Shown in pieces: positions 31,571-61,599 of a DNA stretch of 64,000 nt. The DNA is from Promethearchaeota archaeon (GTDB lineage Archaea; Asgardarchaeota; Lokiarchaeia; Sigyniarchaeales; SOKP01). The DNA lies in the NCBI GenBank assembly GCA_019894975.1, contig JAGXNO010000006.1, positions 1-64,000 of the forward strand, in the 5' to 3' direction. The notes beneath the pieces are model-generated. The model saw only the letters and a program-made list of their open reading frames with translations, had not been told where the DNA came from and did no database searches. The position numbers were made by a program, and so were the translations under genes. Position 1 is the first letter of the stretch; each line of letters begins with the position of its first letter.

Positions 31571-32368
31571 TTGAAAGTATATAAAACTCATTTTTTAGAA
31601 AAAGAATCTGATATAACTATTATCTCAGAATCCAAAACTGCTATATTAAAAGCGAAGAATGTCTTTTATTTTCATAGGGGAAATTTAGAGAAGTATGTCT
31701 TGAAAAATGATCAATTTTTAACTTCCTTTTCTCCAATTAACGTTAATACAGAATTGAGAATTATTAAAATAATGGCTGTTGCCGCAGAATTATGTGATGT
31801 AGGTCCTATGGCTGCTGTTGCTGGAGCTTTAGCAGACCTCATGCTAGAAGTAATGATAAATCCGGATGAGAAGGAAGGATCTAACTACACCACCGCTAAA
31901 ATTGCTTTAGTTGAAAACGGAGGGGAATTAGCTATAGATTCTATTAAACCGATGAATGTTGCTCTTTTTGCAGGAAATAATGAGTTAAATCTGAATATTG
32001 GGTTTTTAATTGAAAAAAAGGATTGCCCAATAGGTATAGGAACAAGTTCTGCAACTGTTGGACACGCAATAAGTTTTGGACAAGCAGATGCTGTAACTAT
32101 CTTTGCAAAAAACGCAGCTCTCGCAGATGCAGCCGCAACAAAAGTAGCTAATGCTGTAAAAGGTGAAGACATCGAGAAATCAATTAAAGAAGGACTAGAT
32201 ATCGCTGATGATCTTGATGGTGTTATCGGTACTTTTATTAGTAGAGAAGATAAGATTGGTCAAGCTGGAAAACTTCCAAAATTGGTTAAAATTGAAGGAG
32301 ATAAGCGATATCTTTTACGAAAGAAGATAAATGATGAATATCTTGGAGACTTCGAAATTTTTAAATAA
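31571..32368 (+). CDS. UPF0280 / ApbE-like protein
   Basis: VGPMAAVAGALAD, VENGGE, TSSATVGHAISFGQADAVT, LADAAAT. Confidence 0.9.
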   Translation: MKVYKTHFLEKESDITIISESKTAILKAKNVFYFHRGNLEKYVLKNDQFLTSFSPINVNTELRIIKIMAVAAELCDVGPMAAVAGALADLMLEVMINPDEKEGSNYTTAKIALVENGGELAIDSIKPMNVALFAGNNELNLNIGFLIEKKDCPIGIGTSSATVGHAISFGQADAVTIFAKNAALADAAATKVANAVKGEDIEKSIKEGLDIADDLDGVIGTFISREDKIGQAGKLPKLVKIEGDKRYLLRKKINDEYLGDFEIFK

Positions 32369-34643
32369 CCCAAAAAATAGGCGTTTCAGCCCCACCCTCT
32401 GTTTTAGAAGAACAGATTTTATTCAAATAATTAAGACTGTAATATTCTTCTAACTCATCCTGAGACAATTGTCCAAACAGTTCAAAACCCTTATTTATTA
32501 TATAACTCTCTGCAAAAAGAAGATATACATCAGTGTTGTAATCTTCCTTAATTTGTGTTAAAATATTCGTCCCATTTTCGTCAAAGTGATTTTCTGGCAG
32601 GAATAAATCAATTTCATACTTAAGATTATAAAAATTTCCTTCATAGGCTAGTGTCCCATTTGTATCACCATTATAACTATAGTATTTAAACACATTATTC
32701 CAGCCGAATTCTGTAATTAAAACATTCTTATCTGAAGTGTTATTAGAATACCAATTTATCGAGCTAACATCTCTTCTCTTTAAAGTAAAAACATCAAAAC
32801 TAACAGATTGGTAAAAATAGCTGGTTAATAGTGAAAAGGTTACTATAAATAAAACCAGAATTTTCATCTTGGACGTATTTATTTTTCCTAATTTTATTAT
32901 TTTATAGATGTAAGAAATAAATCCAATTACAATTATAGGTGGAATCAAATACAAGATTCTTTGCCAAATTAAGTTGCTTAATATCAGTATATTAAATACA
33001 AATCCTACACCTAAGAGAATAAATAGTCCTAGTGCCCAAATGAATAATAGTTTTCCTTTAGGTTTCTTCTGGAATAATATTAGCCCCCATACAGCAAAAG
33101 CACTCAACATTATGATCTCAGAAATATAAAATATATTAGTTACTCCAATTTCTATCCACATTAAATCCACAATTAATAAGCAAATGGCAATTATTATCAA
33201 AATACTAAAAATAAAGGGAATAATTACTTTATCTTCAACTTTTTTAAAGTAAGGATAGCTCTTTCCTTTAATTACCGATTTAAACCTTCCCTTGGTGAAT
33301 TTAATAGATTTCTGTATTTTCCATAACAAAATCCCCCCAGCTATAGCTCCTACACCTCCAATTAAGAGTAAGTAATACCAAGAAAGACTAAGGGGGATAA
33401 AAAACCAATAGTGTCCACTTCCAATGCCGAAAATATTTAAAATCATAAAAATTCCCATCAAACCAACTGAGAAAATCAAATCGATTCCACGTTTATAATC
33501 CCTTAAGAAATAGATTAAATATAGCCATAAAAAGGAAAATAGAAAGATCATAGAAGTAATCACATGAGTTAATACAGCACTTATAAATATCAAGGAAATT
33601 AAACTATACATCATTAAGATATTTGAAAGGATTTCCTTTTTAGTCGGTCGTTCCAATTTAATGAAATTTTGTAACCTAATATAAAGAAGGAGAAAAATCG
33701 CTAAACATTTAATTAAAGCGGATCCTGAAGGCCAATACTGAAGCATCATGTTAGAAAATCCCAGAGATGAGAACTCAAGAATGAAAACACTAAAAAGAGC
33801 TAGACTTTTTCTTTTAAATATTCTTAGAGTGATTGAGTAAAAGATTATTGCAGAAAGGAAATAGGTATAGATTACAAAATATTTTGGAATGAGTAGATGA
33901 CTTACTCCCGAAAAGAAATTAATAACCGCACCGAAAATGCTAATTCCCATTGTGCTGTGATATCCATTAAGGGGGAGTATATTTTCTTCAGTTATAATTC
34001 TACTGTTAAGGATATGGAGCCATGGATCTGTTCCTACGAAAATACCAAATTTTATTATATTAAGAACACAAATTAAAGAGATAAAACCTACTAATAATAA
34101 TACATTCAGACTTATTTTATTTTTAAGGTATTCTAATATGGTAAACTGTTCTAATCTCTCAATTTTATTAACTTTTAGCTTTTTTGGTCTAATAAATATA
34201 TAGGTTTCATTTTTGAATTCATTGAATACAATATAGCACACAATGATGAAAAATGAGATTAATATCCCATAGAAGAAAAAAAATCCTGATAGTAAAATCC
34301 CTATCCAATATCCAAAATAGCCTAAAAAGATATAAAATGCTGAATTTAAGACAATTGTTAAACCTAATTTTTCAAAAGTTGTAAATCCTCCTTTCTTTAC
34401 AAGTACAAAAAGTAGGGGGTAAGTGGGTAAAAATAATATAATAAAAATTGAACTAAAAATAACAGCAAATTGAAATATTATTTCAAGAATAATAATATCT
34501 GATATCCCTATTATAATATCAAAATTAATTAATCTTAAGAAAACAAATGCTATAGAGATCAATGAAGTTAAGAAGAAAAAGAAATTGCTTCGAGAATAGA
34601 TTAGAAAGAGAATTCTATTAAAGCTTAATCTTCTTTGATTCAA
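32361..34643 (-). CDS. Polytopic GT-C-fold glycosyltransferase-like protein (AglB/STT3-like layout, no WWDxG)
   Basis: More than 15 TM segments, GTDPWLH loop motif, soluble C-terminal domain SINWYSNNTSDKNVLITEFGW. Confidence 0.6.
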   Translation of the reverse strand: MNQRRLSFNRILFLIYSRSNFFFFLTSLISIAFVFLRLINFDIIIGISDIIILEIIFQFAVIFSSIFIILFLPTYPLLFVLVKKGGFTTFEKLGLTIVLNSAFYIFLGYFGYWIGILLSGFFFFYGILISFFIIVCYIVFNEFKNETYIFIRPKKLKVNKIERLEQFTILEYLKNKISLNVLLLVGFISLICVLNIIKFGIFVGTDPWLHILNSRIITEENILPLNGYHSTMGISIFGAVINFFSGVSHLLIPKYFVIYTYFLSAIIFYSITLRIFKRKSLALFSVFILEFSSLGFSNMMLQYWPSGSALIKCLAIFLLLYIRLQNFIKLERPTKKEILSNILMMYSLISLIFISAVLTHVITSMIFLFSFLWLYLIYFLRDYKRGIDLIFSVGLMGIFMILNIFGIGSGHYWFFIPLSLSWYYLLLIGGVGAIAGGILLWKIQKSIKFTKGRFKSVIKGKSYPYFKKVEDKVIIPFIFSILIIIAICLLIVDLMWIEIGVTNIFYISEIIMLSAFAVWGLILFQKKPKGKLLFIWALGLFILLGVGFVFNILILSNLIWQRILYLIPPIIVIGFISYIYKIIKLGKINTSKMKILVLFIVTFSLLTSYFYQSVSFDVFTLKRRDVSSINWYSNNTSDKNVLITEFGWNNVFKYYSYNGDTNGTLAYEGNFYNLKYEIDLFLPENHFDENGTNILTQIKEDYNTDVYLLFAESYIINKGFELFGQLSQDELEEYYSLNYLNKICSSKTEGGAETPIFWVI

Positions 34644-34756: not shown

Positions 34757-35893
34757 TCATTTTATTAGATTTTGCATGAACTCTTCCCTGTATTCTTTTA
34801 GAAGTTTTTCTGGTCTTTTTAAGTCTTTATTTTGAGACAAATTAATTTTAATATGGATCAAAATAGGGCCTTTTCCATTTTTAATATAATCCATGCAATT
34901 CAATAATTCTTTTCTCGATTGGATTAAAAAGACGGATTTATAATTACATGCTTTAGCAATTGCAGAAAAATCAATTTTAGGAGAATTTGTTGGTTGACCT
35001 CCTGTAGATTCATGAGCCTCATTATCAAAGATTACATGAACAAAGTTTGATGGAGAATTTTTACCAATTGTAGTAAAAGCACCCATTTGCATAATCACCG
35101 CACCATCACCATCAAATATTATTATTCTTCTGTTTGGTTTTTGGAGGGCTATACCCAACCCAATAGAACTGGCACATCCCATAGATCCAACATTATAAAA
35201 ACTTTTATTGTGATCTAACATTCTTGATACCCTATATCCATATAAGATTCTCGATATATAACCGGTTGTAGAAATTATTACTTCTGTATTATCCAAATTT
35301 TCCATTATCAGGTTAATTACATCCGTTGTAGTAAGTGAGTAATTATTTGATGAGTCCTTATTTATTTTATATTCTTCAAAGAAATTACGACGAAAGACAA
35401 AAGCATAAGGACCTTTATGTTTAGTTAGATAGCTTTTTGCTTTGATTAATTCTCTATCAATAGACTCTAGACTAGGATCTAAGATAACATAAGGAATCTG
35501 AAGTGTATCTAGTAATGGTAAGGTAACCATACCCATTTTCTTATGTTGGGGTGCATCATTTTTTCCGGGTTCTCCACGCCATCCAATCATCAGAAGAATT
35601 GGGATTGAATAAACTTCAGGGTCACATAATGAGGTAATAGGATTAACTGCTTTTCCAAGTCCTGAATTTTGTAGGTAGACAATCCCAATTTTATTTGTAG
35701 ATAAATGGTAACCCGTTGCTAAGGCAATAGCTTCACACTCATTACACGCTATAATATTATTAAGATTTATTGATTTATTTTCTGATAAAAATTTCATAAA
35801 TTCTTTAAAAGTCGAATCTGGGATTCCCGTAAAAAATGTAAATTCATATTTATTTAATGTATTAATAAAATCTCTACAGGATATCATATTCAT
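34757..35893 (-). CDS. aepY: Phosphonopyruvate decarboxylase
   Basis: FFTGIPDS, NECEAIALATGYHLST, QNSGLGKAVNP, IGWRGEPG..DAPQH, GSMGCASS, DGDGA, HESTGGQPT. Confidence 0.95.
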   Translation of the reverse strand: MNMISCRDFINTLNKYEFTFFTGIPDSTFKEFMKFLSENKSINLNNIIACNECEAIALATGYHLSTNKIGIVYLQNSGLGKAVNPITSLCDPEVYSIPILLMIGWRGEPGKNDAPQHKKMGMVTLPLLDTLQIPYVILDPSLESIDRELIKAKSYLTKHKGPYAFVFRRNFFEEYKINKDSSNNYSLTTTDVINLIMENLDNTEVIISTTGYISRILYGYRVSRMLDHNKSFYNVGSMGCASSIGLGIALQKPNRRIIIFDGDGAVIMQMGAFTTIGKNSPSNFVHVIFDNEAHESTGGQPTNSPKIDFSAIAKACNYKSVFLIQSRKELLNCMDYIKNGKGPILIHIKINLSQNKDLKRPEKLLKEYREEFMQNLIK

Positions 35894-35916
35894 TTATTTT
35901 AGTTTATATTCTATTT

Positions 35917-36627
35917 TTATTTATTTAGATAGTTTTTTACTCTTTCTAAATCTTCATGATCATCAATTTCAACACAAAATTCATTGTAATAACATGGTTT
36001 TAGGGTTAGTTCATCTAAAATTTCATTTAAGGCGTCTTCCGCATAACAATTTCGTTTATTATTTTTTATAAAGTTATCAATATGACCTAACCATTTCAGC
36101 ATAAATTCCTTTGATAATTTGTATATTGGGGCTAGAAAAGCAGTATTTTCCCCAAATAGATTTACTCCTATCTTATTTATTCTATCGTTTAAAATATATG
36201 CTTTAAAATCTTTTACTGGGGGGGGGATAATTCTATTTACTAACACACAATCCTCATACTTGGAATCTAATAATAGTTTGACTAAGTTTTGGGAGAATAT
36301 TAAATCCCCATGTGAATATAAAACATCGTCATTTATGATCTCCTTAGCTAAGTATAATGAATATATATAATTCGTTTTATCATATAGTGGATTGTTAACA
36401 TATTGAACGGTAATAAAGGGGTAATTTACCTTAATATGATCTTTAATTTTTTCCTCATGTGGGCCTGTAGGAATTATAAAATTGTTAAATCCAAGTTTGA
36501 TTATATTCCTGAGTTGATGATCTAAAATTGTTGTATTACCTTTTATTTTAATTAGACATTTTGGAGAATTATCTGTTAACGGTGCTAGCCTTTTACCAAT
36601 TCCTGCATTTAAAATTATAACTTTCAT
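35917..36627 (-). CDS. Phosphocholine/phosphonate cytidylyltransferase family (LicC/PntC-like)
   Basis: LNAGIGKRLAPLT..PKCL, NPLYDKTNYIYSL, HGDL, EIDDHEDL. Confidence 0.85.
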   Translation of the reverse strand: MKVIILNAGIGKRLAPLTDNSPKCLIKIKGNTTILDHQLRNIIKLGFNNFIIPTGPHEEKIKDHIKVNYPFITVQYVNNPLYDKTNYIYSLYLAKEIINDDVLYSHGDLIFSQNLVKLLLDSKYEDCVLVNRIIPPPVKDFKAYILNDRINKIGVNLFGENTAFLAPIYKLSKEFMLKWLGHIDNFIKNNKRNCYAEDALNEILDELTLKPCYYNEFCVEIDDHEDLERVKNYLNK

Positions 36628-37769
36628 CTAATTTCATTTATTATATTTTTTAGTTGATTTTCAGTCAATAAACGAGGATTATTTTTTACTCTCTCTGGAT
36701 TAAATCCATTTTTTATTATAATTTCAATTTCTTCTTGAGTAGATACTCCCAAATCGGAAAGTTTTGTTTCTAATCCTATTCTTTTTAAAATGTCATTCAA
36801 TTTTTCTTTAGCTTCAAGAAAGGACTTAGCACCTAGTAATGTGGTTAAATCAGCCATAATATTTTTTACGTAATCAAATCCCCGTGAATCTAGCACATCA
36901 TTTTCATTGACTTCTGAATTGAAAACAATCATCGAAGGTAAAGTCAAAACAACAGCATGACCATGAGGAACTTTAAAATACGAGGTAATTGGATAAGAAA
37001 TTGCATGACATGCAGTAGTTTTCGTTATATTTATTGCCTTACCGGCATAATTGGCAGCAATAGCCATATTATATCTAGAATTTTTATCCGGACCATGAAC
37101 TGCTTTGATTATATTTTCCATAACAAGTTTAATTGCTTTACTTGCATATTCCTTCGACTTCTCTGTAGAATTAACATTCCAATATGATTCTATTCCTTGA
37201 CTTAATGCGTCCATACCCGTGTAAGCAGTTATCCTTTTCGGAAGAGTATATGTCAATTCTGGATCTATAATAGCATAATCCGCGTGAATATATTTTTCAT
37301 CTGCTAATGAATATTTGGTATATCCATCAAAAATTACAGCAAAATGAGTTACCTCACTGCCAGTTCCTGCTGTTGTAGGGATAAGTATTAAAGGTGTAGG
37401 TTGATACTGTATTTTTTTCTTTTTTAAAAGAAAATCTTTAACATTACCCTCATTTTTAGAAAAAACAGCTAAACTTTTACCTATATCTAAAGCAGAACCC
37501 CCACCCATAGCGACAATTAAATCGAAATTACCTTTATTAAAAGAATTAAGTACCCTATTCACACCTTTAACTGTAGGAGTGGGTGATATCTCATCATAGT
37601 GAAATAATTGGCATTTTTTTTCAATTAAACCAAGAACTTTTTTTATATTTTTTTGGGTTAGTGTTGATTTCCCTGTAATGAAAAACACATTTTTGAAATT
37701 ATTTTCCATCAGTATTTTATGAAGAATTTTAATTGAACCGTTTCCAATAAACTCTTTCATATTTGTCAA
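36624..37769 (-). CDS. Phosphonoacetaldehyde reductase (group III Fe-alcohol dehydrogenase, PhpC/FomC-like)
   Basis: GGGSALD, PTTAGTGSE, DALSQ.IES.W, AINITKTT..HAISY, HGHAV, R..NNP; lies between pepM and aepY. Confidence 0.9.
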   Translation of the reverse strand: MTNMKEFIGNGSIKILHKILMENNFKNVFFITGKSTLTQKNIKKVLGLIEKKCQLFHYDEISPTPTVKGVNRVLNSFNKGNFDLIVAMGGGSALDIGKSLAVFSKNEGNVKDFLLKKKKIQYQPTPLILIPTTAGTGSEVTHFAVIFDGYTKYSLADEKYIHADYAIIDPELTYTLPKRITAYTGMDALSQGIESYWNVNSTEKSKEYASKAIKLVMENIIKAVHGPDKNSRYNMAIAANYAGKAINITKTTACHAISYPITSYFKVPHGHAVVLTLPSMIVFNSEVNENDVLDSRGFDYVKNIMADLTTLLGAKSFLEAKEKLNDILKRIGLETKLSDLGVSTQEEIEIIIKNGFNPERVKNNPRLLTENQLKNIINEIR

Positions 37770-37786
37770 TCACTTCATAGAATTAG

Positions 37787-39496
37787 TTAGATTAACTTTT
37801 CAGCAACTTCTATATCTTTCTTCGTATGAATCTCGAACCATCCTTTATGCACTTCCAAAATATCTACTCTAAAACCCCTATCTATTACTTCTTGTATAAG
37901 ATCTATAAATGAAGCATTCCCAAAAGAATCTGCCTCATGGAACATTCCCTTATGACTCAATTTACATTCATGATATATTTTTCTGATAATTTCAACACCA
38001 TATTCAGAGAAATAAGCTATTCCCGTAAATTCGTAATCTGCCATATCCATATTAATACCTCTTCCTATTCTTATGATTTCATTTTCTATTTGATATAAGT
38101 CTCTTGTTTGCTCACTTGGTTTTTTTTTGGTAAGAACTAGTTCAAGATTTTTATCGATTTTGTGTTTATGATAGGTATATGAATTATCTAAAACTAAAAT
38201 TATATCTCCTTTCGAATTTAGAAGATTTTTTATAATCTGTTCATTATATAATATATCTGAATAAATAAAAATAAATCCTCCTTCCATTTCCTCTTCAGCT
38301 TTAAATAGAGAGTGTAAGATATAAAATTTTTCATATTCATCATTATCAATATATTTTGCACCCTCTACAGTGAATTCCTCTTTTTGATATCCCCTAATAA
38401 CAGTTATGTCTTTGATTTTACAATTATTCAATATTTCTATTTGTCTCTGGAGAACAGGTTTATCCCCCAAGACCGTCATAGCCTTGGGAATAGAAAACTC
38501 AGGATCACTACCCGCAGCGGGGATTATTACTTTTGTTGACCCTTTAATATATTTCATATCTTTTTCTTTTACATCTAAGAATCCTACGTCTTTAAAAACA
38601 GTCTTCACAGGACTGCATAAAGACTCTGCTTCAAACGCTCTCTTATTTCTTAGGATGATTGAAGCAGTTTCTTTCATTGCTTTATGAGCCGCTCGTAAAA
38701 GATGGTTAGCATAGATAACGATATTAAACCCGTGCTCCAACAACTCATTTTCCGTAATCGTATTATATGTAGTCGGAACGCAAACAAGAGGTTTCCTAAA
38801 ACCTAGTTCTTTTGATAATTTTTCATATTCTCTTGCAAATTCTAAGATTTCTTTAGGTTCTCTTTGCTTAGAATGAATCATTATACCATCTGCTCCGGCT
38901 CTCAAATACTTTTTAGCTCTATATATAGCATCCTTTAATCCTAAACCCGAAATCAGACTCTCTATTCGAGCTACGATCATGAAATCATCAGAGATCTGTA
39001 CTTCTTTCCCCCTTTTTATTTTTGTAGCAAAGACATCTGGTTCTTCTTGATCTTGAATCGTCCCTCCCTCTAAGCTATTTCGTTTGGGAAATTTTTTATC
39101 TTCAATAATAACCATCGAAACACCCATATCTTCTAAAGCACGAATGAAATATTCGAAATTCGCAGCTTCTCCGCCAGTATCTCCATCAATTATTATTGGT
39201 TTGTTTGAACCATTTAAAATTTGTCTAACAGTTTCGTATCTTGATTCCAATCCAATTAATCCAATATCGGGATATCCCTTAGCAGCACTATCAGTAAAAC
39301 TACTAATCCAAAAACCGTCGAATTCAAGAATTTCATCTTGATGATGTTCTCTTATGTTGTTTGCTATTATTGCACTAAGCCCGTTGTGTACTTCTAAGAT
39401 TTTAACAATCTTTTTGTTGTGAAGTAATTCCTTCAACATTCTTCTTCTTACATGAGGAAGTTTACTGTTTTGTTTTTTGAATTCCATTTTTATCAC
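37787..39496 (-). CDS. pepM: Phosphoenolpyruvate mutase fused to a C-terminal cytidylyltransferase-like domain
   Basis: PepM signature EDKxxxxxNS (EDKKFPKRNS), DGDTGG, ARIESLI, IMIHS, VPTTY, IYANHLLRA; then PAAG..PK, YSDIL, WFEI. Confidence 0.95.
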   Translation of the reverse strand: MIKMEFKKQNSKLPHVRRRMLKELLHNKKIVKILEVHNGLSAIIANNIREHHQDEILEFDGFWISSFTDSAAKGYPDIGLIGLESRYETVRQILNGSNKPIIIDGDTGGEAANFEYFIRALEDMGVSMVIIEDKKFPKRNSLEGGTIQDQEEPDVFATKIKRGKEVQISDDFMIVARIESLISGLGLKDAIYRAKKYLRAGADGIMIHSKQREPKEILEFAREYEKLSKELGFRKPLVCVPTTYNTITENELLEHGFNIVIYANHLLRAAHKAMKETASIILRNKRAFEAESLCSPVKTVFKDVGFLDVKEKDMKYIKGSTKVIIPAAGSDPEFSIPKAMTVLGDKPVLQRQIEILNNCKIKDITVIRGYQKEEFTVEGAKYIDNDEYEKFYILHSLFKAEEEMEGGFIFIYSDILYNEQIIKNLLNSKGDIILVLDNSYTYHKHKIDKNLELVLTKKKPSEQTRDLYQIENEIIRIGRGINMDMADYEFTGIAYFSEYGVEIIRKIYHECKLSHKGMFHEADSFGNASFIDLIQEVIDRGFRVDILEVHKGWFEIHTKKDIEVAEKLI

Positions 39497-39653
39497 TTAG
39501 ACATTCAGTTAGAATAAAATTTTGAAAAATTCTGGTTTAGGGAATGGTTAGAATACCTAAATACATAAATATTAAAAAATTAATTAGTTTTTACATTTAG
39601 ATTGATGTTTTGAATAAAAATAATAGGAAAAAAAAGATTAGTCTATAATATAT

Positions 39654-40967
39654 TTATAAATACTCTTTTCTCTCGGGCAAACTCTTCCAGTCTAATAATA
39701 AAACTAAACCACCTATTAGTGCTATTATTACCCAAAGTAAAAAAGCAGCCCATGATCCCGCTGTGTCAATAAGGGCTCCTGAGGTAAAAGTAGTAATAGC
39801 AGCTCCAATATATCCCCATCCATCGATAAATCCCGTAGCAGCGGAGGCTGCCTTCCGTGTAGCAAATTCCATAGGTATTGTAGAAACTAAAAGTGCATGC
39901 GGTGCAAAATTCAAAATCCCAATTAAAATCAATACAGGAATTCCAAAAACCAAATCAAGAGGGGGAAGTACTGTATAAATTAATAATACTAAGGATAGCA
40001 ATATAAAAAAAGCGCATATTACAGGGATTCTTCTTTTTCCAGCAAATTTATCAGAAATCCACGCACCTAGAAGAACTCCAATCAGACCCCCCAAGGGGTA
40101 GAAAATAGATTTCCAAACACCAAAAATACTCGTACCAGTTACTTCAGGACTGAGTAGATATGGAAGCCAGTCTGTTAATCCATATCTTACCATATTCAAA
40201 CAAAATAAACCAAAAGAAGCAAATAGAACAGTTTTGGTAAATAGAACTGTTTTAACAGTGTACTTAAAACCAACAAATTCATCGTCACGACATTCACCCA
40301 TTACCATTTGACCTTCACATTCTTCTTCGATAGTTGGTAAACCAACCTCTTCAGGAGCATTTCTACAGCGTGCATAAAAATGTATCGCCAAAATCAACAT
40401 GATAATTCCTGGAACTATAAATGAGAATCGCCAATTTAAACTAAGTGACTTAGTAATAACTATTGCAATTATCCAGGATACAACACCCCCCAGTAAATAT
40501 GATGTAGCAAGTCTACTTGACCATTTCCCTCTGTCTTCTGCCGGGTACCAATTAGCGATAGTTTTCACAGAAGGTGCCCATCCCATTGACTGAAAATATC
40601 CATTTAAACCCCAAAACAAGAATGCTACCCATATTAAATCAAATGCAGTTCCCATAAACAAATTGATGACTGAAGATACTATTAATCCTATTGCTATGAA
40701 ACGCCTAGCTCCTATTTTATCACCTAAAAACCCATTAACAAATTGTCCAAAAGCATATGCCAGGAAAAATGTTGTCCCTACTAATCCCATTACAGTAGCT
40801 GAAATCCCATATTCAGACATAATAAATGGTTTCGCAATTGAAATATTAGTACGGCCAATATAGTAAATCATGTAAGTAATCCAAACTGTGAAAAATATTC
40901 GCATTCTCCAGGATTTAAACTGAGATTTTACCTCGGCTTCACTTTTAGTATTTAAATTTTCATTCAT
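39654..40967 (-). CDS. MFS transporter, organophosphate:Pi antiporter family (GlpT/UhpT-like)
   Basis: YYIGRTN, GFLGDKIGAR, NGYFQSMGWAP, NWYPAEDRG, PEEVGLP, AATGFIDGWGYIG. Confidence 0.88.
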   Translation of the reverse strand: MNENLNTKSEAEVKSQFKSWRMRIFFTVWITYMIYYIGRTNISIAKPFIMSEYGISATVMGLVGTTFFLAYAFGQFVNGFLGDKIGARRFIAIGLIVSSVINLFMGTAFDLIWVAFLFWGLNGYFQSMGWAPSVKTIANWYPAEDRGKWSSRLATSYLLGGVVSWIIAIVITKSLSLNWRFSFIVPGIIMLILAIHFYARCRNAPEEVGLPTIEEECEGQMVMGECRDDEFVGFKYTVKTVLFTKTVLFASFGLFCLNMVRYGLTDWLPYLLSPEVTGTSIFGVWKSIFYPLGGLIGVLLGAWISDKFAGKRRIPVICAFFILLSLVLLIYTVLPPLDLVFGIPVLILIGILNFAPHALLVSTIPMEFATRKAASAATGFIDGWGYIGAAITTFTSGALIDTAGSWAAFLLWVIIALIGGLVLLLDWKSLPERKEYL

Positions 40968-40995
40968 TTTCTTTACTCATATTTATATTTGTTAT

Positions 40996-41919
40996 CTATA
41001 TTTTGCCATCTTTTATTAATTGTTGAGCATATTCAAAATCTTCGTCTGTATCCATTTCCACCCATTCTCCTTTTATGTCTACTGAATACATTGGATAACC
41101 TCTGATAATAAGTTCCTCAAGCATATCTGTTAAATATGCCTTTTGTATTGAGGTAGCATCATGGAATCGTCCCTCAAACTTGCATGTCTTATTATATTTC
41201 GCACGATTATAATTGCGCATCAATATTTCTGCTCCTTTTTTTGAAAATTTCCCGAGACCGATGAATTCTCCATGACCAACATCAGGATTATAAAATTTTG
41301 ATAGATGAATGATCTTACCATCTTCTACAATTGCTAACTCAGCTTCATCTGTAGGATGTTTTGTTCTTCCTTCATATCTTTTCCTCCAATCAGTATCTAC
41401 GATAAAACTAAAATCGTAAGGTGAATCCATTAGCTTTTTAACAACATTATCACTGTACAAAATATCTGAATATGTGAAAATAAAACCATCTTTCATTGCC
41501 TCCTCAGCGTAAAATAAAGATTCTAGAATATTATTATTATAATAATCATCATTATCATAGTAGGCAATATTAGGTAAGTCAATTTTATCTTTTTGAAATC
41601 CTCGAACAATAGCAAAATCATCTATACCATTTTGACGAAAAACATCCATTGTCCGTTCAAGGATGCTTTTACCTTCAATTTCTAATAAACACTTTGGCTT
41701 ATATTCCGTTAGAGGTCTTAATCTTGTACTCGGACCTGCAGCTATTATGATTACTTTCATTTCTCTTACTTCCTTTTTTGTTTCATATCGTCTTACAATT
41801 CGCTCTAAAAGCGAAATATGTTCATTAAATTTTTCAGATGTTTTTTTATATCCGATTTCTTTGACACTATCATAAACTTTCTTAATTTCTTCAAGATCAG
41901 AATATTTTTGTTTCGGCAT
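40996..41919 (-). CDS. Phosphocholine/phosphonate cytidylyltransferase with ~50-aa N-terminal HTH-like extension
   Basis: AAGPSTRLRPLT..PKCLL, NNILESL, YSDI, GEFIGL, YLTDML, WVEMDTDED. Confidence 0.85.
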   Translation of the reverse strand: MPKQKYSDLEEIKKVYDSVKEIGYKKTSEKFNEHISLLERIVRRYETKKEVREMKVIIIAAGPSTRLRPLTEYKPKCLLEIEGKSILERTMDVFRQNGIDDFAIVRGFQKDKIDLPNIAYYDNDDYYNNNILESLFYAEEAMKDGFIFTYSDILYSDNVVKKLMDSPYDFSFIVDTDWRKRYEGRTKHPTDEAELAIVEDGKIIHLSKFYNPDVGHGEFIGLGKFSKKGAEILMRNYNRAKYNKTCKFEGRFHDATSIQKAYLTDMLEELIIRGYPMYSVDIKGEWVEMDTDEDFEYAQQLIKDGKI

Positions 41920-42198
41920 ATAATTATCTGAATGGTTTAATAACTTTACAAGTGCATTTACCTATAAAAACTTTTAGGAATTTTATCTTCAAAAGATTTT
42001 TTGGTTATATAGAAAACTATGAAATCTTATATAGGTAAATGGATTAGATTTTCATTTATTTATTAGGTATTCAAATCATTCTTTCCCTAACTTTAAATAT
42101 CTTTTCTTTCTTATTCATTATTTTATAAGAACTCTTAGGAGTGTCAAAAGAAATATTTTATAATTCAATAAGTTTTTCAGGAGAAAAACAAGTATTAG

Positions 42199-43704
42199 TT
42201 ATTTGTAATATTTTCTTAAATGTTTGTTAAAATACAGAGGAAAGTATAATATCCAAACAACTATTTCTTTCCATCTTTGGATCAATTGTCCTCTTCTTGC
42301 AATTATTGATCTTAATACAAATTTAACAAAACCAGTTTTGTTTTTCTGGTCTGACACATCATTTAATTTTGTATCCAGAAAAATAAAACGCTTTGTATAT
42401 TTTCTATTCTTCTTTATTAATTTTTTTAGACCAAATCCCGTTAATCGATTATAAAAAAGTATTGTAATGAATTCCTGGTCTTTCAATAATCCTTGGGATC
42501 TTAAATCTTCTTTTCTTATTATTTGGTTATCTTTCTTAAGATGATCCCTAAGAAATCTCACTAATTGGGGCGGAAATTGATCAGGTATTAAAATTTTTTC
42601 GGATTTTAAGGATACTAACGTACTCTGTTGATAGAGAGTACTTAAGATTGATCCAAAATAACTATAAGCTTCAATCTCAGACTGGAGATAAAACTGATGC
42701 AAATCATTATATATCTCAGGATGCTTCTGACTTACGTCTTTTTTTTCCAAATGATCTTCCTTTAAGTCAAATAACGAGAACTTCCCATTATCATTTAGTA
42801 ATTTCCATCGATCTTCTATTATCATCGTTTTTTTAATTGATTGAAACATTAAATAACAATCTCCTCGAATTTTCCTATTTATATTGACATTAATATTATC
42901 TTCAATCAATTTCTTAAAAGATGTGGATTCTCTTTTATACGTGGGTTTAAAATCTAGATAATCAAGAATTGTCTCCATAAGATCCAAGAGGTATACGCGT
43001 TCTGTGAATACCTTTGGTTTAGATTTAGTAATGCTTTTAGGTAGCTTCATAAATAATGCTGGTTGCATAGAGGACTGATGAATATCATCGAAATGCAGCA
43101 ACTTCGCCTTTTTGTATAAATTCTTATCATAATATCCATGATCAGAATTAAGGATGAAAATTGAATCTTCCCAAAATTCATTTTCCTTCAAATAGCTTAT
43201 AATTTTATTGATGTATAAATTCGCTTTAGGATCACTAGGTCTAAAGAATAAAAAAACAAGATTTTTCTGATTAGGTAAAATTTCTTGGGCAACTTGCATA
43301 AAAAGTTCATAAATTTCCTTACCATCTAACCAATGATCTCCTTGGTATAATTCCTCCACAAAATATGGAGGTAAAATCTCTTTGGTAATTTCTACCTGTT
43401 CTCTTCCGAATATAATTGATTGGATATTGTAATTCTCCCTTTTTAGGGGATAAATGAAATTTTCATGTTCTAAACTTGGCAAGTTTTCTAATGTGCGATA
43501 ATAATCAGGAAAAATATAATAAGGAAATCTGCCCGTTAAAAAGGAAATAAGAGATAAGTTAGTAGAAGGAAATTGAGAAATACAATCTTCGAAATAAAAT
43601 CCTTCATTATCATTTTTTAAAGTCTTATATACAGGAAGTAAACTATGTAAATCTGGTCGTTCATAATTACATATTGAGTCAGTTACAATCCAGAAAATAT
43701 TCAT
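42199..43704 (-). CDS. Alkaline phosphatase/sulfatase superfamily hydrolase or transferase (Thr at the nucleophile position)
   Basis: NIFWIVTDS, FPSTNLSLISFLTG, NSDHG, LLDLMETILD, LFDLKED. Confidence 0.75.
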   Translation of the reverse strand: MNIFWIVTDSICNYERPDLHSLLPVYKTLKNDNEGFYFEDCISQFPSTNLSLISFLTGRFPYYIFPDYYRTLENLPSLEHENFIYPLKRENYNIQSIIFGREQVEITKEILPPYFVEELYQGDHWLDGKEIYELFMQVAQEILPNQKNLVFLFFRPSDPKANLYINKIISYLKENEFWEDSIFILNSDHGYYDKNLYKKAKLLHFDDIHQSSMQPALFMKLPKSITKSKPKVFTERVYLLDLMETILDYLDFKPTYKRESTSFKKLIEDNINVNINRKIRGDCYLMFQSIKKTMIIEDRWKLLNDNGKFSLFDLKEDHLEKKDVSQKHPEIYNDLHQFYLQSEIEAYSYFGSILSTLYQQSTLVSLKSEKILIPDQFPPQLVRFLRDHLKKDNQIIRKEDLRSQGLLKDQEFITILFYNRLTGFGLKKLIKKNRKYTKRFIFLDTKLNDVSDQKNKTGFVKFVLRSIIARRGQLIQRWKEIVVWILYFPLYFNKHLRKYYK

Positions 43705-43893
43705 TATCCCACCGGGCTACGTAATACTGTTTTTACCTAATTCAAACAAAATGTATTTAATTATGAAATGTGTAAAAGAAAATTGTTAAAAAGATAAAAA
43801 GTTAATGTCGTAATTACAATTGAAGAGCTTTACAAGATTATAGCCAATTCGTGCTAGGAGAATTAATCTCCGTAAAAAGTGAGTTAAGATTTT

Positions 43894-44997
43894 TTATTTT
43901 ATCACACATTTTTTATATATATCTAAAACTGTCAATGCACTTTCTTCCCAGGAGTACAACTTTATTCTTTCTAATCCTTTTTTAATTAGAGTCTTTCGTA
44001 GTACTTCATCACTTAGTAATTGAATAATTTTATCTGCTAATTCAGTGGGATCTGAATTGTCTTTTAGGATCAATGCTGAATCACCAACTATTTCAGGAAT
44101 TGCAAAAGCCTTTGATGTAATTACGGGGCACCCACATGCCATTGCTTCTAAATTTGGCATTCCAAAACCTTCAAAAAAGGATGGAAATAAAAACATCTCT
44201 GCATTATTCAAAAGGTTAATAACATCATTAACAGGTAAAAAACCTGTGAAAATAATATTATCGAGGATTTTTTCATTCTTAGCAAATTGTAATACTCGAC
44301 TGTTTTTCCAACCTTTTCCTCCTAGAACTAACATTAAATCTTTTTTTTCTCTATTTATTATAGAAAATGCTTTTAAAATTGTCCAAGGATTTTTTCTTTC
44401 AGAAAATTTGCTTAAATGAAAAATGAAATGAGAATCAATGCCATATTTTTCATTTATCTTTTCAGATTTCTTTTCATAAACTCTAAAATCTTTATCCACA
44501 GCACTATGTGTAAAGAAGACCCTATTCTCTCTTACCCCATACTGATAAGTTACAAAATTTTTACCTGCGTTAGATCCTGAAAAAATATAATCCATCTTTC
44601 TAAAATAAACAGGCTTAATCAATTTCGAATGGATTCTTTTTAATTTATTGAATTGGTCTGGAAAGTAAAGTTCTGCTGCACCACCTCCATGAACAGTGGT
44701 TAGTTTCTTAGGTTTTTTTAACCATACGGGAGAAAGAATAGTTAAAGGGTAATAGTGAAGAATATCAAAATTTTCTTTTTTAAGTTTGAAATGTGCGAGT
44801 AATGGATTCTTTGGGATTATTAATTCTGTAGTTTTTTCATAAATTTCATGATCATTTTTGGAATAATGAATCAGAACGATATTAAAATTTTTATTAAGTT
44901 TTAAGATATGAGATACGAGTTGTCTTAAATGAGACCCACTTCCACTAGTCCCTTGATCTATAGGTCTTGTAAATATTCCGATTTTTGGTTTACTCAT
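43894..44997 (-). CDS. Glycosyltransferase family 4 (MtfB-like)
   Basis: ERKN, FPSFFEGFGMPNLEAMACGCPV, YSWE. Confidence 0.9.
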   Translation of the reverse strand: MSKPKIGIFTRPIDQGTSGSGSHLRQLVSHILKLNKNFNIVLIHYSKNDHEIYEKTTELIIPKNPLLAHFKLKKENFDILHYYPLTILSPVWLKKPKKLTTVHGGGAAELYFPDQFNKLKRIHSKLIKPVYFRKMDYIFSGSNAGKNFVTYQYGVRENRVFFTHSAVDKDFRVYEKKSEKINEKYGIDSHFIFHLSKFSERKNPWTILKAFSIINREKKDLMLVLGGKGWKNSRVLQFAKNEKILDNIIFTGFLPVNDVINLLNNAEMFLFPSFFEGFGMPNLEAMACGCPVITSKAFAIPEIVGDSALILKDNSDPTELADKIIQLLSDEVLRKTLIKKGLERIKLYSWEESALTVLDIYKKCVIK

Positions 44998-45025
44998 AGT
45001 TTTATCAAATCTACAAAAATTAGTT

Positions 45026-45835
45026 CTAATTTACAATCGATTGATGAATTTTGATGACATCCTTTTCAATATTTTTTGCTTTGATTACCATGAATGTGAT
45101 AAATACACCTCCCATGAAAATTACATAAACGATCATAATTGCTTCTAAAATCCAGAATAACGTGAAATATATATACAACAACCAACCAATAAAGAAAATA
45201 GATGTGATCATATGAGTATGACTAAAAGCGTTTGTAAGATTTATAAAGATAGCTTTGATGAGTTTCATCAGGCTCTTTTTAGAGGCTTTTTGTTCTTTTA
45301 ACTCACCTTCTACTTCTATATTTTTATTTATGCTGCTTTTAGCGGAAGCAACAGTGGCTATCTTACGAACTCTCCTTATCCCGATTAAAAAAAACGTTGC
45401 TATAATCCCAAAGAAGATATATAAAAATTCCGAATTGATTTTAAAGATGGAAAACCCAAATGTGAAAAAAAACCAACTTTGGAAAAATAAATGTCCAATT
45501 TCATCATAGTATATTCCCCTAAGTGATGTTTTTTTTTTATATCGAGCAACTTCACCGTCAACTTCATCAGAAATATAGTAAACATATAGTAGGATAAATC
45601 CAATTATTATGAACAAATTATTACCAATCCCAATAAAAATTAAGCCTAATAAACCTATTATAGAACCGGAAATTGTTATAAAATTTGCAGAAATTCGGGT
45701 TTTTACCAAGATCCATGTTATATATTTTGAGATAAAAGTAAAGATTGCATGCCACCAATCTCTTTTAATCTTTCGTTTCTCAAGTTTGCTGCCTTGAATT
45801 ATCTGTTTGAATTCTTTAAAACTTTCTGATGTCAT
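45026..45835 (-). CDS. CDP-alcohol phosphotransferase family membrane protein
   Basis: ISANFIT, DEVDGEVAR-x7-G-x3-D-x3-H. Confidence 0.85.
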   Translation of the reverse strand: MTSESFKEFKQIIQGSKLEKRKIKRDWWHAIFTFISKYITWILVKTRISANFITISGSIIGLLGLIFIGIGNNLFIIIGFILLYVYYISDEVDGEVARYKKKTSLRGIYYDEIGHLFFQSWFFFTFGFSIFKINSEFLYIFFGIIATFFLIGIRRVRKIATVASAKSSINKNIEVEGELKEQKASKKSLMKLIKAIFINLTNAFSHTHMITSIFFIGWLLYIYFTLFWILEAIMIVYVIFMGGVFITFMVIKAKNIEKDVIKIHQSIVN

Positions 45836-45989: not shown

Positions 45990-47642
45990 ATGGAACCTGA
46001 GCAACGAGAGAAATTACCGTTAGAGCGTAATACAGAATATAAAAATTTGGCCACGAACACGTTTTATTCATTTTTAATAAATTATGGGTCCCATTTTTTT
46101 ACGCTTGTCTACTCATTTCTTTTAGCGAGATTAATAACAGATGAATCATGGGATTTCTTAATTCTGGCAACTTCTTATATCACAATTATTGTAATAATAA
46201 CATCAATATTACCCCCAGGTTTAAACTATGCATTGAATTATTACATTCCAAGGTATCTAGCCTTAAATCAGAAGTATAAAATAAAATCATTAATCAGAAA
46301 TTCATTAAAAGCAAAATTATCCTTTTTAATACCTGTTTTTATTATTAGTGTTATTGCGTTTAATATGTTTCAGGTTCTTTTTGCTATTAATTTAGAAGAC
46401 AAGATAACACTTTTATATATACTTTCACCCCTTATTATCGTTCATAGTTTGACAAGAATATTAGAATCTATAAACCGTGGTTTTAGTAGATTTAACTATA
46501 ATTTTTTATATTTAATTATGAAAAACTTGATACATATTTTACCTCTTATGATTTTCTTCATTTTTGATATTAATATTACCGTAGAAGGTATTGCCATCAT
46601 TGTAATGATTTCTTTTTTAATTCCATTTATTTTTAATTGTATATCTGTTTCTATATTATATTTAAGGATTAAATCATCTGAAACTAAACAAAACTCATTT
46701 AAAAAGGATATTTCGAAGACTTTTAAATACGGAAGTTATATAGGAATTACTGATCTAATAAATAGAACTTGGAAAGAAACCCAACTTCAAGGTATTGGGA
46801 TTTTTGAGTCAGCAGGGGCAGTCACGGGCTATAATATTGCTATTAATTATCAAAGTTTATCTTTTTATTCTGTTCAGTCTATTAGTATTCCTCTGTTAAC
46901 GTCTTTTACGAGTTTAACAACTAAAGAGAATTTTGATAAAGTAAATAAAATCTATCGAATTGCTTATAAAATCACTCTCTTCTTATTACTAATTATTACA
47001 GGAGCCCTATTTTTTAGTATTGAGTTTTTATTAGACTTTGTCTTTCTAGAAGACCGCTTAATCTATTCGAACATTCTCAGATTATATCTAATCGCGGGGA
47101 TCTTTCAGATTTTAGGAGAATTTATGCAAGCGTTTTTAAATGCTCAGCATAAAGTGAAAATTACGTTGGGGTTGAAAGTTTTTTATATGTTATATTATAT
47201 ACCATTATTTTTTATTGGGCTTATCTATTTTGGCGTAGAAGGGGCCATAGTGCTTGGATTACTACTTGGAAATTTTATTTCTTTAGTTATTCAAATCATA
47301 GTGACCTATAAAATTGGAAAAATCAAATTAAATCTTCAAAAAATTATAACTCAATACCTAATATTTTTCATTTCATTAGCTACAACAATAATCTTAAAAT
47401 CTTTTATATATAAGGATTTAAGTTTAAGACTCATTGAAGATTTAGGGTTAACTCTGTTCAAAAATTTTGATTTTCTGTCTATAGGGTTATTCCTTATACT
47501 TTTTATATTGCTAAATTTAGTATTTAACACGGTTAGTGACACCGATATTAAAAATTTCGAATCACTCTTAAATAAAGAAAGATTTTTAGATAGAGCTTTA
47601 CAAAAAGGTTTAAATGGACTTAAGAAATTTACAAGAGGTTAG
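45990..47642 (+). CDS. Oligosaccharide flippase (Wzx/MOP family)
   Basis: ~14 TM; NTFYSF..LLARL, AVTGYNIA, YFGVEGAIV. Confidence 0.8.
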   Translation: MEPEQREKLPLERNTEYKNLATNTFYSFLINYGSHFFTLVYSFLLARLITDESWDFLILATSYITIIVIITSILPPGLNYALNYYIPRYLALNQKYKIKSLIRNSLKAKLSFLIPVFIISVIAFNMFQVLFAINLEDKITLLYILSPLIIVHSLTRILESINRGFSRFNYNFLYLIMKNLIHILPLMIFFIFDINITVEGIAIIVMISFLIPFIFNCISVSILYLRIKSSETKQNSFKKDISKTFKYGSYIGITDLINRTWKETQLQGIGIFESAGAVTGYNIAINYQSLSFYSVQSISIPLLTSFTSLTTKENFDKVNKIYRIAYKITLFLLLIITGALFFSIEFLLDFVFLEDRLIYSNILRLYLIAGIFQILGEFMQAFLNAQHKVKITLGLKVFYMLYYIPLFFIGLIYFGVEGAIVLGLLLGNFISLVIQIIVTYKIGKIKLNLQKIITQYLIFFISLATTIILKSFIYKDLSLRLIEDLGLTLFKNFDFLSIGLFLILFILLNLVFNTVSDTDIKNFESLLNKERFLDRALQKGLNGLKKFTRG

Positions 47643-60261: not shown

Positions 60262-60290
60262 TTCTCTTCACAGTTGTTATTTTTGCTATT

Positions 60291-61424: not shown

Positions 61425-61599
61425 AAAAAAAATATCTCTAAATTTATAGCTTTAAATAGTTTATAAGATTTGATTTAAAATAAGGAATTTGATAATACAA
61501 TTAATAATTCGTTGAGAATTCAACATTAATGAGTTAATTCAGTTATATTAAATTATAAAGAATAAAACTAATTAATCTTAATTTCATTAATAAATTAGA

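Follow-up and report, generated by a model that had tools for sequence, protein, structure and literature searches.

The window, by which we mean the whole 64,000-nucleotide stretch of DNA analysed, contains nine co-directional open reading frames (ORFs) on the minus strand between positions 34757 and 45835. The ORFs lie where the initial annotation had placed them, and profile and PDB matches agree with the families it had assigned. With the two genes that bound them, they are as follows.

32361..34643, minus strand: unk760, a membrane protein with about 14 hydrophobic (TM) segments; island boundary
34757..35893, minus strand: Ppd, phosphonopyruvate decarboxylase (TIGR03297; PF02776 and PF02775)
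35917..36627, minus strand: NT236, LicC/PntC-like nucleotidyltransferase (PDB 1JYK, 6PD1)
36624..37769, minus strand: Fe-ADH, candidate phosphonoacetaldehyde reductase of the PhpC/FomC type (PF00465 and PF25137)
37787..39496, minus strand: PepM, PEP mutase with a fused C-terminal PF12804 nucleotidyltransferase-like domain (TIGR02320, EDKxxxxxNS)
39654..40967, minus strand: MFS437, MFS carrier of the organophosphate:Pi antiporter type, GlpT/PgtP/UhpC-like (PF07690)
40996..41919, minus strand: NT307, LicC-like nucleotidyltransferase with an intact signature (PDB 1JYK, E 7.3e-15)
42199..43704, minus strand: Sulf501, cytoplasmic sulfatase-fold protein (weak match to PF00884)
43894..44997, minus strand: GT4 glycosyltransferase, partner of CAPT269 (PF00534, 130.7 bits)
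45026..45835, minus strand: CAPT269, divergent CDP-alcohol phosphotransferase (DxxDGxxARx8GxxxDxxxH; PDB 4O6M)
45990..47642, plus strand: Wzx/MOP-type flippase (PF01943 and PF01554; 11 hydrophobic segments); one boundary of the variable island

Intergenic gaps of 157, 279 and 189 nt divide the locus into sub-units. The setting is one of glycan genes, with the flippase, GT4s, an AglJ-like GT2 and an epimerase around the cluster; annotation recovered every flanking gene reported earlier (flippase, methyltransferase, epimerase, GT4 and GT2). The synteny of the flippase is kept in congeners. The unk760 protein has no match in Pfam, NCBIfam or PDB and is found with paralogues in 48 of the 54 congeneric genomes compared; it is not phosphonate-specific. 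The Asgard origin of the DNA is borne out by its close relatives, which are named Promethearchaeota/Promethearchaeia MAGs. A mis-binned or chimeric contig, envisaged in the initial annotation, is opposed by these relatives, by the Asgard-type genes on the 103-kb contig that carries the locus, and by the recurrence of both locus and flanks in more than 10 congeneric MAGs, which argues against mis-binning despite an estimated genome contamination of 8.55%.

The four genes at 34757-39496 (PepM, Fe-ADH, NT236 and Ppd) form a module predicted to lead from PEP through phosphonopyruvate (PnPy) and phosphonoacetaldehyde (PnAA) to 2-hydroxyethylphosphonate (HEP). PepM scores 349-351 bits against TIGR02320, for which the curated equivalog cut-off is 319.55. 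The motif EDKxxxxxNS, which tells Ppm from the isocitrate-lyase superfamily's other members, reads IEDKKFPKRNS in this protein. Both the motif and the Asp ligands can be aligned with PDB 5UNC and 1M1B and are invariant in A1, and residues E132, D133, K134, N140 and S141 show no variation across 14 Asgard sequences. Ppd scores 424.4 bits (TIGR03297 cut-off 312.5), matches both ThDP domains, and is syntenic with PepM in every Asgard core locus examined. The family identities and the PepM motif can thus be read directly from the sequence.

The top NCBIfam match of Fe-ADH is TIGR03405, at 207.6 bits and under the cut-off of 423.7. HEP as the product therefore rests on context, because the enzyme scores below the PhpC-type equivalog cut-off; known PhpC enzymes are highly divergent (PMC13576164). 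The gene is kept beside PepM and Ppd in bacteria as well as in the two Asgard fusion types, and at L047 and L048 a class-V aminotransferase stands in its place, giving an AEP-type variant. This conserved synteny and the aminotransferase swap make Fe-ADH a candidate enzyme of the PhpC/FomC type producing 2-HEP. A search of the whole genome gave no PhnW-type AEP transaminase (best match 31 bits, cut-off 400.8), which extends to the genome an absence first noted for the window. The route from PEP to HEP by PepM, Ppd and Fe-ADH proposed at the outset is thus supported in silico.

Nucleotidyltransferases of the LicC/PntC group were recognized by the signature GxG(T/S)Rx4-8PK, which includes the catalytic Arg and Lys (PMC6697681). 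Both NT236, in the canonical form GxGxR...PK, and NT307 carry this signature. The best PDB matches of NT236 are LicC 1JYK (E 3.7e-12) and PntC 6PD1 (E 1.3e-7), and the gene is found in nearly all Asgard core loci; it is likely a HEP cytidylyltransferase, with the preference for CTP inferred, as for the other nucleotidyltransferases of the locus, from likeness to LicC/PntC. These enzymes lend in silico support to the suggestion that the product undergoes nucleotidyl activation. The domain fused to PepM (PAAGSDPEFSIPK) lacks the signature: its P-loop is non-canonical, with a shortened loop and without the Arg of GxG(T/S)R...PK, and the missing Arg is a property of the whole fusion subfamily. The degenerate P-loop of this domain weighs against the reading proposed below. 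A Fom1-type bifunctional CyTase-PepM is ruled out for this protein, as the domain is a C-terminal PF12804 and not an N-terminal PF01467. The Fom1-like layout, with N-terminal PF01467, is seen in other Asgard lineages, including Ca. Lokiarchaeum ossiferum.

Precedents for such a pathway exist in several known systems. In fosfomycin biosynthesis in Streptomyces wedmorensis, Fom1 (CyTase-PepM), Fom2 (Ppd) and FomC (Fe-ADH) carry out the same order of chemistry, PEP to PnPy to PnAA to HEP to CMP-HEP, and PepM is fused to a nucleotidyltransferase domain in both systems (PMC6697681). However, the present fusion is a C-terminal PF12804 with a degenerate P-loop where Fom1 has an N-terminal PF01467 CyTase, equivalents of Fom3, Fom4 and FomD are absent, and the context is one of glycan genes and not of antibiotic tailoring. 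The bacterial Pnt clusters with PntC, from Treponema denticola and Atopobium rimae, place LicC-like nucleotidyltransferases beside Ppm and Ppd (Rice et al. 2019, PMC6697681), and they share with the present locus Ppm-PF12804 fusions and a product bound for the cell surface (PMC6697681). The characterized PntCs use AEP, whereas the present locus has Fe-ADH where a transaminase would stand, the genome contains no LicD-type transferase, and the host is archaeal. Nucleotidyl activation and the fusion of PF12804 or PF01467 domains to Ppm are established tailoring logic for phosphonates (PMC6697681).

Among archaea, a phosphonate product has been isolated for one pathway only, that of methylphosphonate in Nitrosopumilus maritimus (PMC8942020, PMC8931226). 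Its cluster resembles the present one in having Ppm, Ppd and an alcohol dehydrogenase leading to HEP. Presumably it also contains nucleotidyltransferase and sulfatase-family genes. In N. maritimus MpnS makes methylphosphonate from HEP, whereas neither MpnS nor HepD was seen in the present window, as judged from its annotated ORFs: none of these looked cupin- or dioxygenase-like, and no ORF inside the cluster is unassigned. We take the present host to be an anaerobe, in which an O2-dependent step would be unlikely. No paper in the literature searched links Asgard archaea with phosphonate synthesis, and within that literature the earlier statement that a biochemical description is lacking in this group stands. 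The locus is a known kind of pathway in a new host, a Loki-type Asgard archaeon.

Enzymes of the PhpC type also serve in HEP degradation (PMC13576164), and AepP, a relative of the GlpT-like carriers, imports 2-AEP (PMC8316502); imported HEP could accordingly be oxidized by Fe-ADH as a source of phosphorus. However, a motif-complete PepM and a Ppd are present. The genome contains no phosphonatase PhnX above cut-off and no C-P lyase (PhnJ), and these absences, together with that of PhnW, make a catabolic role unlikely; we regard it as improbable in the extreme.

The phosphonate genes are not peculiar to this genome: of 400 Asgard genomes sampled, 42 have a PepM that scores above its cut-off. The core of four genes (PepM, Ppd, Fe-ADH and NT236) is shared by the two Asgard fusion types and occurs in about 10% of these genomes, including that of the cultured Ca. 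L. ossiferum. Four locus states are found at the same site among congeners. The core is accompanied by CAPT, GT4, Sulf501, NT307 and MFS in 14 genomes of the genus; Sulf501 is the sole accessory gene, with CAPT and GT4 missing, in 3; the accessory set occurs without the core in at least three (G002, G015 and G215); and in the remaining state PepM is decayed. The nine genes therefore do not form the single obligate, "complete" system first described. They are two modules, which can be found apart from one another in congeners, and this modularity and the co-occurrences given below are features of the genomes themselves.

The core of L. ossiferum has no glycan locus around it and adjoins the gene of a NUDIX hydrolase, which indicates that a surface fate is not universal. 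This arrangement, the early steps shared with Fom1, Fom2 and FomC (PMC6697681), and the MFS carrier in the locus would suit a diffusible phosphonate, secreted by the carrier after a transient CMP-HEP stage of the kind seen in fosfomycin biosynthesis. However, no radical-SAM methyltransferase, epoxidase, ATP-grasp enzyme or peptide ligase was found in or beside the present cluster, the locus is set between the flippase and glycan genes, and in other lineages the partners of the core are glycan phosphotransferases. A diffusible product is, in our judgement, very improbable for this genome.

The second module (39654-45835) comprises NT307 with MFS437, Sulf501, and CAPT269 with GT4, and would serve in head-group handling, also where the first module is absent. 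MFS437 scores 245 bits against TIGR00881 and 192 bits against glpT, each under its cut-off, and is separated from NT307 by 28 nt. It is present in 19 of the 54 congeners, 5 of which lack PepM. NT307 has a LicC-like P-loop and is a paralogue of the domain fused to PepM (33% identity over 257 aa, E 1e-42); it is invariably paired with MFS437, also in PepM-less loci and in L. ossiferum. A carrier of the GlpT type implies a cargo that is already phosphorylated or phosphonylated. MFS437 may bring organophosphates or phosphonates into the cell for activation by NT307. The Lic system of Streptococcus pneumoniae (LicB import, LicC cytidylylation, LicD transfer) is similar in that the module combines a carrier, a LicC-like enzyme and a proposed transferase that would place a small head group on a surface polymer, and in that the module also occurs without endogenous synthesis. 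It differs in that the carrier is of the GlpT type, there is no kinase and no LicD, and the proposed transferase has a sulfatase fold.

The two modules could be mere neighbors in a variable glycan island, with MFS437, NT307, Sulf501, CAPT269 and GT4 adding an ordinary phosphate ester taken up from outside (glycerol phosphate or phosphocholine, for example) and HEP being used by an enzyme elsewhere. The accessory module stands alone at the same site in the three genomes named above, and the RefSeq label of the L. ossiferum NT307 homologue is "phosphocholine cytidylyltransferase family". Against this, Sulf501 accompanies the core in every PepM-positive congener (17 of 17), and as the lone accessory gene in the three genomes without CAPT and GT4; L. 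ossiferum, a member of another family, likewise has NT307 and MFS beside the core; and neither TagF nor LicD was found elsewhere in the genome. Adjacency without a functional connection appears unlikely to us.

CAPT269, separated from GT4 by 28 nt, has no Pfam match at E 1e-3, PF01066 included, and matches AF2299 (PDB 4O6M) at E 4.9e-5. The canonical motif is D1xxD2GxxARx8GxxxD3xxxD4, in which D4 is the proposed catalytic base. CAPT269 keeps D1-D3 and the G, A and R, but D4 is His, and the protein falls outside the canonical motif; His at this position is the family norm (116 of 126 motif-bearing proteins). CAPT269 is best called a divergent relative of the CDP-alcohol phosphotransferases.

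These features could point to a phosphonolipid. CAPT269 would join HEP to an archaeal lipid, from CMP-HEP and a lipid alcohol or from CDP-archaeol and the HEP hydroxyl, and GT4 would glycosylate the head group. CAPT269 combines a CDP-alcohol phosphotransferase motif with hydrophobic segments, and it matches AF2299 and archaetidylinositol-phosphate synthase best. Pairs of CAPT and GT4 recall the logic of PI synthase and PimA, and a distant Asgard family has a His-type CAPT two genes away from a type-B PepM. CDP-OH transferases are also the mark of a known bacterial phosphonolipid group (PMC8942020). However, the CAPT(His)-GT4 pair turns up again in unrelated loci: the large His-type family pairs with GT4 (and RtcB) in glycan loci without PepM, which leaves little specific support for a phosphonolipid. 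In addition, CAPT is present in congeners without PepM, and in three congeners the core stands without either CAPT or GT4. CAPT269 is thus a poor choice as the phosphonate-installing enzyme, and we doubt that a phosphonolipid is made. Of the acceptors first proposed for HEP, ether lipids and S-layer/N-glycans, it is the glycan that agrees in silico with the surface-glycan island.

Sulf501 is the element common to all locus states. Its AF2 model (pLDDT 89.7) retrieves S1 sulfatases in Foldseek at E 1e-16 with 12-17% identity. A formylglycine (S1) sulfatase is excluded, as the site has no C/SxPxR and reads F-P-S-T-N-L-S, lacking the Pro and Arg. D9, S47, D188 and H189 are invariant and T48 nearly so; in the model, the helix that follows the second strand has S47/T48 at its N-cap, where the nucleophile of an LtaS/EptA-type enzyme is expected. 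Enzymes of this type combine a Thr or Ser nucleophile with Asp/Glu and Asp-His metal ligands, roles for which S47/T48, D9 and D188-H189 are candidates. The protein has no TM segment and no signal peptide, and its catalytic fold begins at residue 2; it departs from the architecture of an LtaS/EptA-type transferase, having neither the N-terminal multi-pass membrane domain nor an extracytoplasmic catalytic domain. The family yielded only 58 matches, every named one an Asgard MAG or marine sediment, and as judged from these matches it is Asgard-restricted.

In other Asgard lineages TagF-like (PF04464) or LicD genes lie beside the core in the place of Sulf501. TagF-like proteins and LicD are known families of CDP-alcohol-dependent glycan phosphotransferases. 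The exclusivity of Sulf501 and TagF/LicD reflects a handful of evolutionary events in related genomes. Because it always occurs with PepM in congeners and is replaced elsewhere by TagF-like or LicD genes, Sulf501 is the best candidate in the locus for a phosphonyl transferase. It is also kept in genomes without PepM and therefore lacks specificity for phosphonates; hydrolase activity, or a different group as substrate, is conceivable.

Taken as a variable surface-glycan decoration island of two separable modules, the region would make HEP, and NT236 would most likely turn it into CMP-HEP. Sulf501, with Ser/Thr at the nucleophile position, would move the CMP-activated head group onto a lipid-linked glycan, and the neighboring Wzx-type flippase would then flip the decorated product. 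We consider this reading modestly probable; HEP, CTP and the glycan acceptor are its presumed elements, and the role of Sulf501 is the most conjectural of all. One HEP-glycan ester is documented, as far as the account in PMC8942020 goes, in the exopolysaccharide of Stackebrandtia nassauensis and Glycomyces (Yu et al. 2014, via PMC8942020). Within that account, HEP ends up as a glycan ester, the fate that we propose here, whereas the host is an actinobacterium; the likeness drawn is one of product fate.

As a tentative and speculative extension, we suggest that Sulf501 would be the founding member of a new class of phospho(no)transferases: cytoplasmic proteins of sulfatase fold in which Ser/Thr, rather than formylglycine, is the nucleophile and which transfer CMP-activated head groups to lipid-linked glycans. 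What is transferred could be HEP of endogenous origin, supplied through NT236, or an imported organophosph(on)ate supplied by MFS437 and NT307. If true, this class would supply the long-missing transfer step of phosphonoglycan synthesis. HEP still has its hydroxyl free after transfer, so that even a poly(HEP) chain resembling teichoic acid is conceivable as the product.

The minus strand at 34757-45835 carries nine ORFs in head-to-tail order, whose identities were assigned from Pfam, NCBIfam and PDB sequence searches. These searches bore out both the nine co-directional genes and the families proposed for them in the initial annotation. The flanking genes named there, encoding a Wzx-type flippase, a methyltransferase, an epimerase, a GT4 and an AglJ-like GT2, are likewise all present.

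Genes of the island
45026-45835, minus strand: CAPT269, divergent CDP-alcohol phosphotransferase
43894-44997, minus strand: GT4, glycosyltransferase of family GT4
42199-43704, minus strand: Sulf501, sulfatase-fold protein
40996-41919, minus strand: NT307, LicC-like nucleotidyltransferase
39654-40967, minus strand: MFS437, GlpT/PgtP-like MFS carrier
37787-39496, minus strand: PepM-NT, PEP mutase (PepM) with a fused C-terminal PF12804 domain
36624-37769, minus strand: Fe-ADH, Fe-dependent alcohol dehydrogenase
35917-36627, minus strand: NT236, LicC/PntC-like nucleotidyltransferase
34757-35893, minus strand: Ppd, phosphonopyruvate decarboxylase

Three further NAD-dependent sugar epimerase/dehydratase genes lie within 59221-63998 of the window, followed by an APS kinase gene (62620-63150) and an NPP-type phosphodiesterase gene (63168-63998, running past the window end). 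This gene set suggests that sulfation is also supported by the same glycan region. Between an isoleucyl/valyl-type tRNA synthetase gene and the sugar dehydratase genes is a 691-aa ORF (57072-59147) with no match in Pfam. The neighbor bounding the island opposite the flippase, unk760 (32361-34643, 760 aa), combines some 14 hydrophobic segments with a soluble C-terminal part and contains an invariant loop motif, GTDPWLH; it returned nothing in Pfam, NCBIfam or PDB sequence searches. It was dropped as a phosphonate-specific component since it is carried by 48 of 54 congeners, often with paralogues at 41-44% identity. The protein may be a GT-C-like enzyme; its AF2 model, at a mean pLDDT of 51.5, is of too low quality to rely on.

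The source genome is a MAG of 3.9 Mb (95% complete, 8.55% estimated contamination), and the window sits on a 103-kb contig. Several independent studies supplied the MAGs, named Promethearchaeota or Promethearchaeia (Loki-type Asgard), in which close PepM relatives occur. Identical gene order and flanks are seen in over ten genomes of the genus, some of them with contigs near 270 kb. Mis-binning was rejected on this synteny across many MAGs, and mis-binning or chimerism across the region, against which the initial annotation had cautioned, is very unlikely given both lines of evidence.

The four-gene core (PepM-NT, Fe-ADH, NT236 and Ppd) is predicted to produce 2-hydroxyethylphosphonate (HEP). 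PepM scores 349 bits against an equivalog cut-off of 319.55 and bears the diagnostic EDKxxxxxNS motif; Ppd scores 424 bits against a cut-off of 312.5. Across Asgard genomes the invariant set consists of PepM, Ppd, Fe-ADH and an NT236-type nucleotidyltransferase. Fe-ADH is only the top one among several comparable Fe-ADH matches and does not reach the PhpC-type equivalog cut-off; its assignment is based on conserved synteny and on the class-V aminotransferase that takes its place in one genus of the window's family (g21, loci L047 and L048). By gene content, the g21 cluster is a predicted AEP-type variant of the Asgard cluster. In these two loci the core is surrounded by up to three TagF-like genes. 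A search of the window's genome found no AEP transaminase, in agreement with its reported absence from the window, no phosphonatase above cut-off and no C-P lyase PhnJ; these three results point to a biosynthetic cluster with HEP as the expected product. No unassigned or cupin-like ORF was found in the cluster or the annotated window.

The distribution of PepM, a check proposed at the outset, extends to 42 of 400 sampled Asgard genomes above cut-off, including 33 of 134 in the window's family and 16 of the 53 other members of its genus. In the window's family PepM carries the C-terminal PF12804 domain, and in other Asgard lineages it has the Fom1 layout, with an N-terminal PF01467 cytidylyltransferase as its fusion partner. 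Both forms correspond to the two major Ppm (PEP mutase) fusion classes already catalogued in bacteria (PMC6697681). The two fusion types form separate clades in the PepM tree; its sampling is biased towards the query and it is rooted at the midpoint, so it was used only for this separateness. Candidatus Lokiarchaeum ossiferum (closed genome, 6,035,313 bp) has the Fom1-like form, and its core adjoins homologues of NT307 and MFS437. The three elements lie outside any glycan locus, so the fate of HEP in this cultured organism may differ; neighboring genes encode a NUDIX hydrolase, an alpha/beta hydrolase and a pterin-binding protein. Public annotation already names the L. ossiferum gene PEP mutase, and close homologues are annotated in Woesearchaeota and Nanoarchaeota. 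Apart from close Asgard loci and bacterial PepM domains, a single-protein contig scan brought up nothing, and no Nitrosopumilus locus was among its results.

PntC activity depends on a GxG(T/S)R...PK signature, as Rice et al. demonstrated (PMC6697681), and both NT236 and NT307 retain it. NT307 and the PepM-fused domain are paralogues, sharing 33% identity across 257 residues. In the fused domain (37787-38536) the loop is shortened and the signature Arg is absent, the sequence reading PAAGxDPxFxxPK. The shortened loop and the missing Arg are shared by all members of the subfamily checked, including a Chloroflexota sequence, and this domain may have no activity or may act in another way. NT307 also has a 53-residue N-terminal extension ahead of the nucleotidyltransferase fold, which is conserved in some orthologues (307-310 aa) and missing from others (254-257 aa); it may reflect a start-codon question or an extra small domain.

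The initial annotation described a complete, single locus. This description did not hold, as two separable modules, the core and the five accessory genes, occupy the same site in congeners. Intergenic gaps of 157, 279 and 189 nt divide the island into four units, CAPT-GT4, Sulf501, NT307-MFS437 and the core, and these gaps together with the separable locus states led us to reject a single nine-gene operon. Among 54 genomes of the genus, PepM is found in 17, Sulf501 in 22, MFS437 in 19 and CAPT269 in 16. One chromosomal site, extending from the flippase to unk760, is found in four states.

States of the island site in the genus
State A: the window's complete gene set; 14 genomes
State B: Sulf501 and core only; G011, G207 and G223
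State C: CAPT, GT4, Sulf501, NT307 and MFS437, without PepM, Fe-ADH, NT236 or Ppd; G002 (100% complete, 146-kb contig), G015 (no GT4 seen) and G215
State D: 78-residue PepM remnant, with a sulfotransferase gene adjoining Sulf501 at the site of the decayed PepM; G024

In the PepM tree, with its biased sample, State B cores group with other genera and not with full-state cores, a grouping that suggests State B arose by replacement rather than by simple deletion.

CAPT269 retains D1 to D3 of its motif and has a His at D4. The same His occurs in 116 of 126 motif-bearing proteins among the best 150 representatives of its relatives, so it is no private oddity of CAPT269. Sampled relatives on long contigs have a GT4 neighbor, often an RtcB paralogue, and lie in glycan loci without PepM. 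In L101, L102 and L104, the His-variant CAPT lies between an RtcB paralogue, a member of an RNA-ligase family and an unexpected presence here, and a GT4, in glycan loci that also contain STT3, PMT_2 or radical-SAM genes. Within the genus, CAPT is missing from three core-bearing loci and present in core-less ones. Of the earlier proposal that HEP is installed on lipids or glycans, the glycan setting is borne out; the phosphonolipid reading is possible but gains no specific support from CAPT, which is separable from the core and belongs to a His-type family found in PepM-less glycan loci.

MFS437 falls in the organophosphate:Pi antiporter group and is always paired with NT307, 28 nt apart. A GlpT relative, AepP, imports 2-AEP in Pseudomonas (PMC8316502). 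As the pair persists without PepM, its simplest reading would be import and activation of an external phosphate ester or phosphonate, which parallels the logic of the Lic pathway.

Sulf501 is present in every PepM-positive congener (17 genomes). In other genera of the window's family a TagF-like CDP-glycerol glycerophosphotransferase adjoins the core, and in a distant Asgard family the core lies beside two LicD genes, a flippase and a His-type CAPT. To our knowledge, TagF and LicD are the two families known to move phospho-alcohols from CDP-activated donors to glycans; neither was found in the window's genome. The AF2 model of Sulf501 has an S1-sulfatase fold (pLDDT 89.7) and matches S1 sulfatases in Foldseek (E 1e-16, 12-17% identity). 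At the sulfatase C/SxPxR position the protein reads F-P-S-T-N-L-S; D9, S47, D188 and H189 are invariant and T48 nearly so, and neither a membrane segment nor a signal peptide is predicted. The replaced motif, with the other properties of the protein, argues that Sulf501 is not a sulfatase. A family search gave only 58 hits, the named ones all from Asgard MAGs or marine sediment metagenomes, and BLAST against the ORFs of 19 bacterial PepM loci returned nothing. The most distant relative, P0058, is at a contig end and its context is uninformative. Some islands contain the core, some only the core and a single further gene, and some lack the core, a pattern that singles out the Sulf501 family; of the proteins considered, Sulf501 is the strongest candidate for a transferase acting in the cytoplasm on CMP-activated head groups. 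The comparison of Sulf501 with TagF/LicD as partners spans a small number of independent events, some genomes have Sulf501 but lack PepM, and the protein may instead be a hydrolase.

The Asgard core matches the early chemistry of Fom1/Fom2/FomC in fosfomycin biosynthesis. The methylphosphonate cluster of Nitrosopumilus maritimus reportedly also contains sulfatase and nucleotidyltransferase genes. The core corresponds to the HEP branch, to which 8.5% of ppm neighborhoods belong (PMC8942020), and among known strategies activation by a nucleotidyl group predominates (PMC6697681). In bacteria, ppm neighborhoods with CDP-OH transferases and sulfatase-family genes have been described (PMC8942020), and the same source documents HEP on a glycan in Stackebrandtia. 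No paper on phosphonate synthesis in Asgard archaea was found in the literature searched, consistent with the initial annotation. On balance, we lean towards a model, drawn from gene content, in which HEP is synthesized, activated with CMP and then used to decorate a surface glycoconjugate; we are more confident of the HEP core and less so of the role of Sulf501.

We know of no phosphonate-attaching enzyme from any organism. The within-genus island states make the uncharacterized Sulf501 family a concrete transferase candidate, which could be a new component if this role is confirmed. The HEP core is found in about one tenth of sampled Asgard genomes, and because cultured Candidatus Lokiarchaeum ossiferum is among them, a direct test of biomass by 31P NMR or mass spectrometry is possible now. 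Cell-surface phosphonates withstand phosphatases and alter surface charge. The pathway logic is not new; what is added is a surface-chemistry trait in the Asgard archaea, the lineage closest to eukaryotes.
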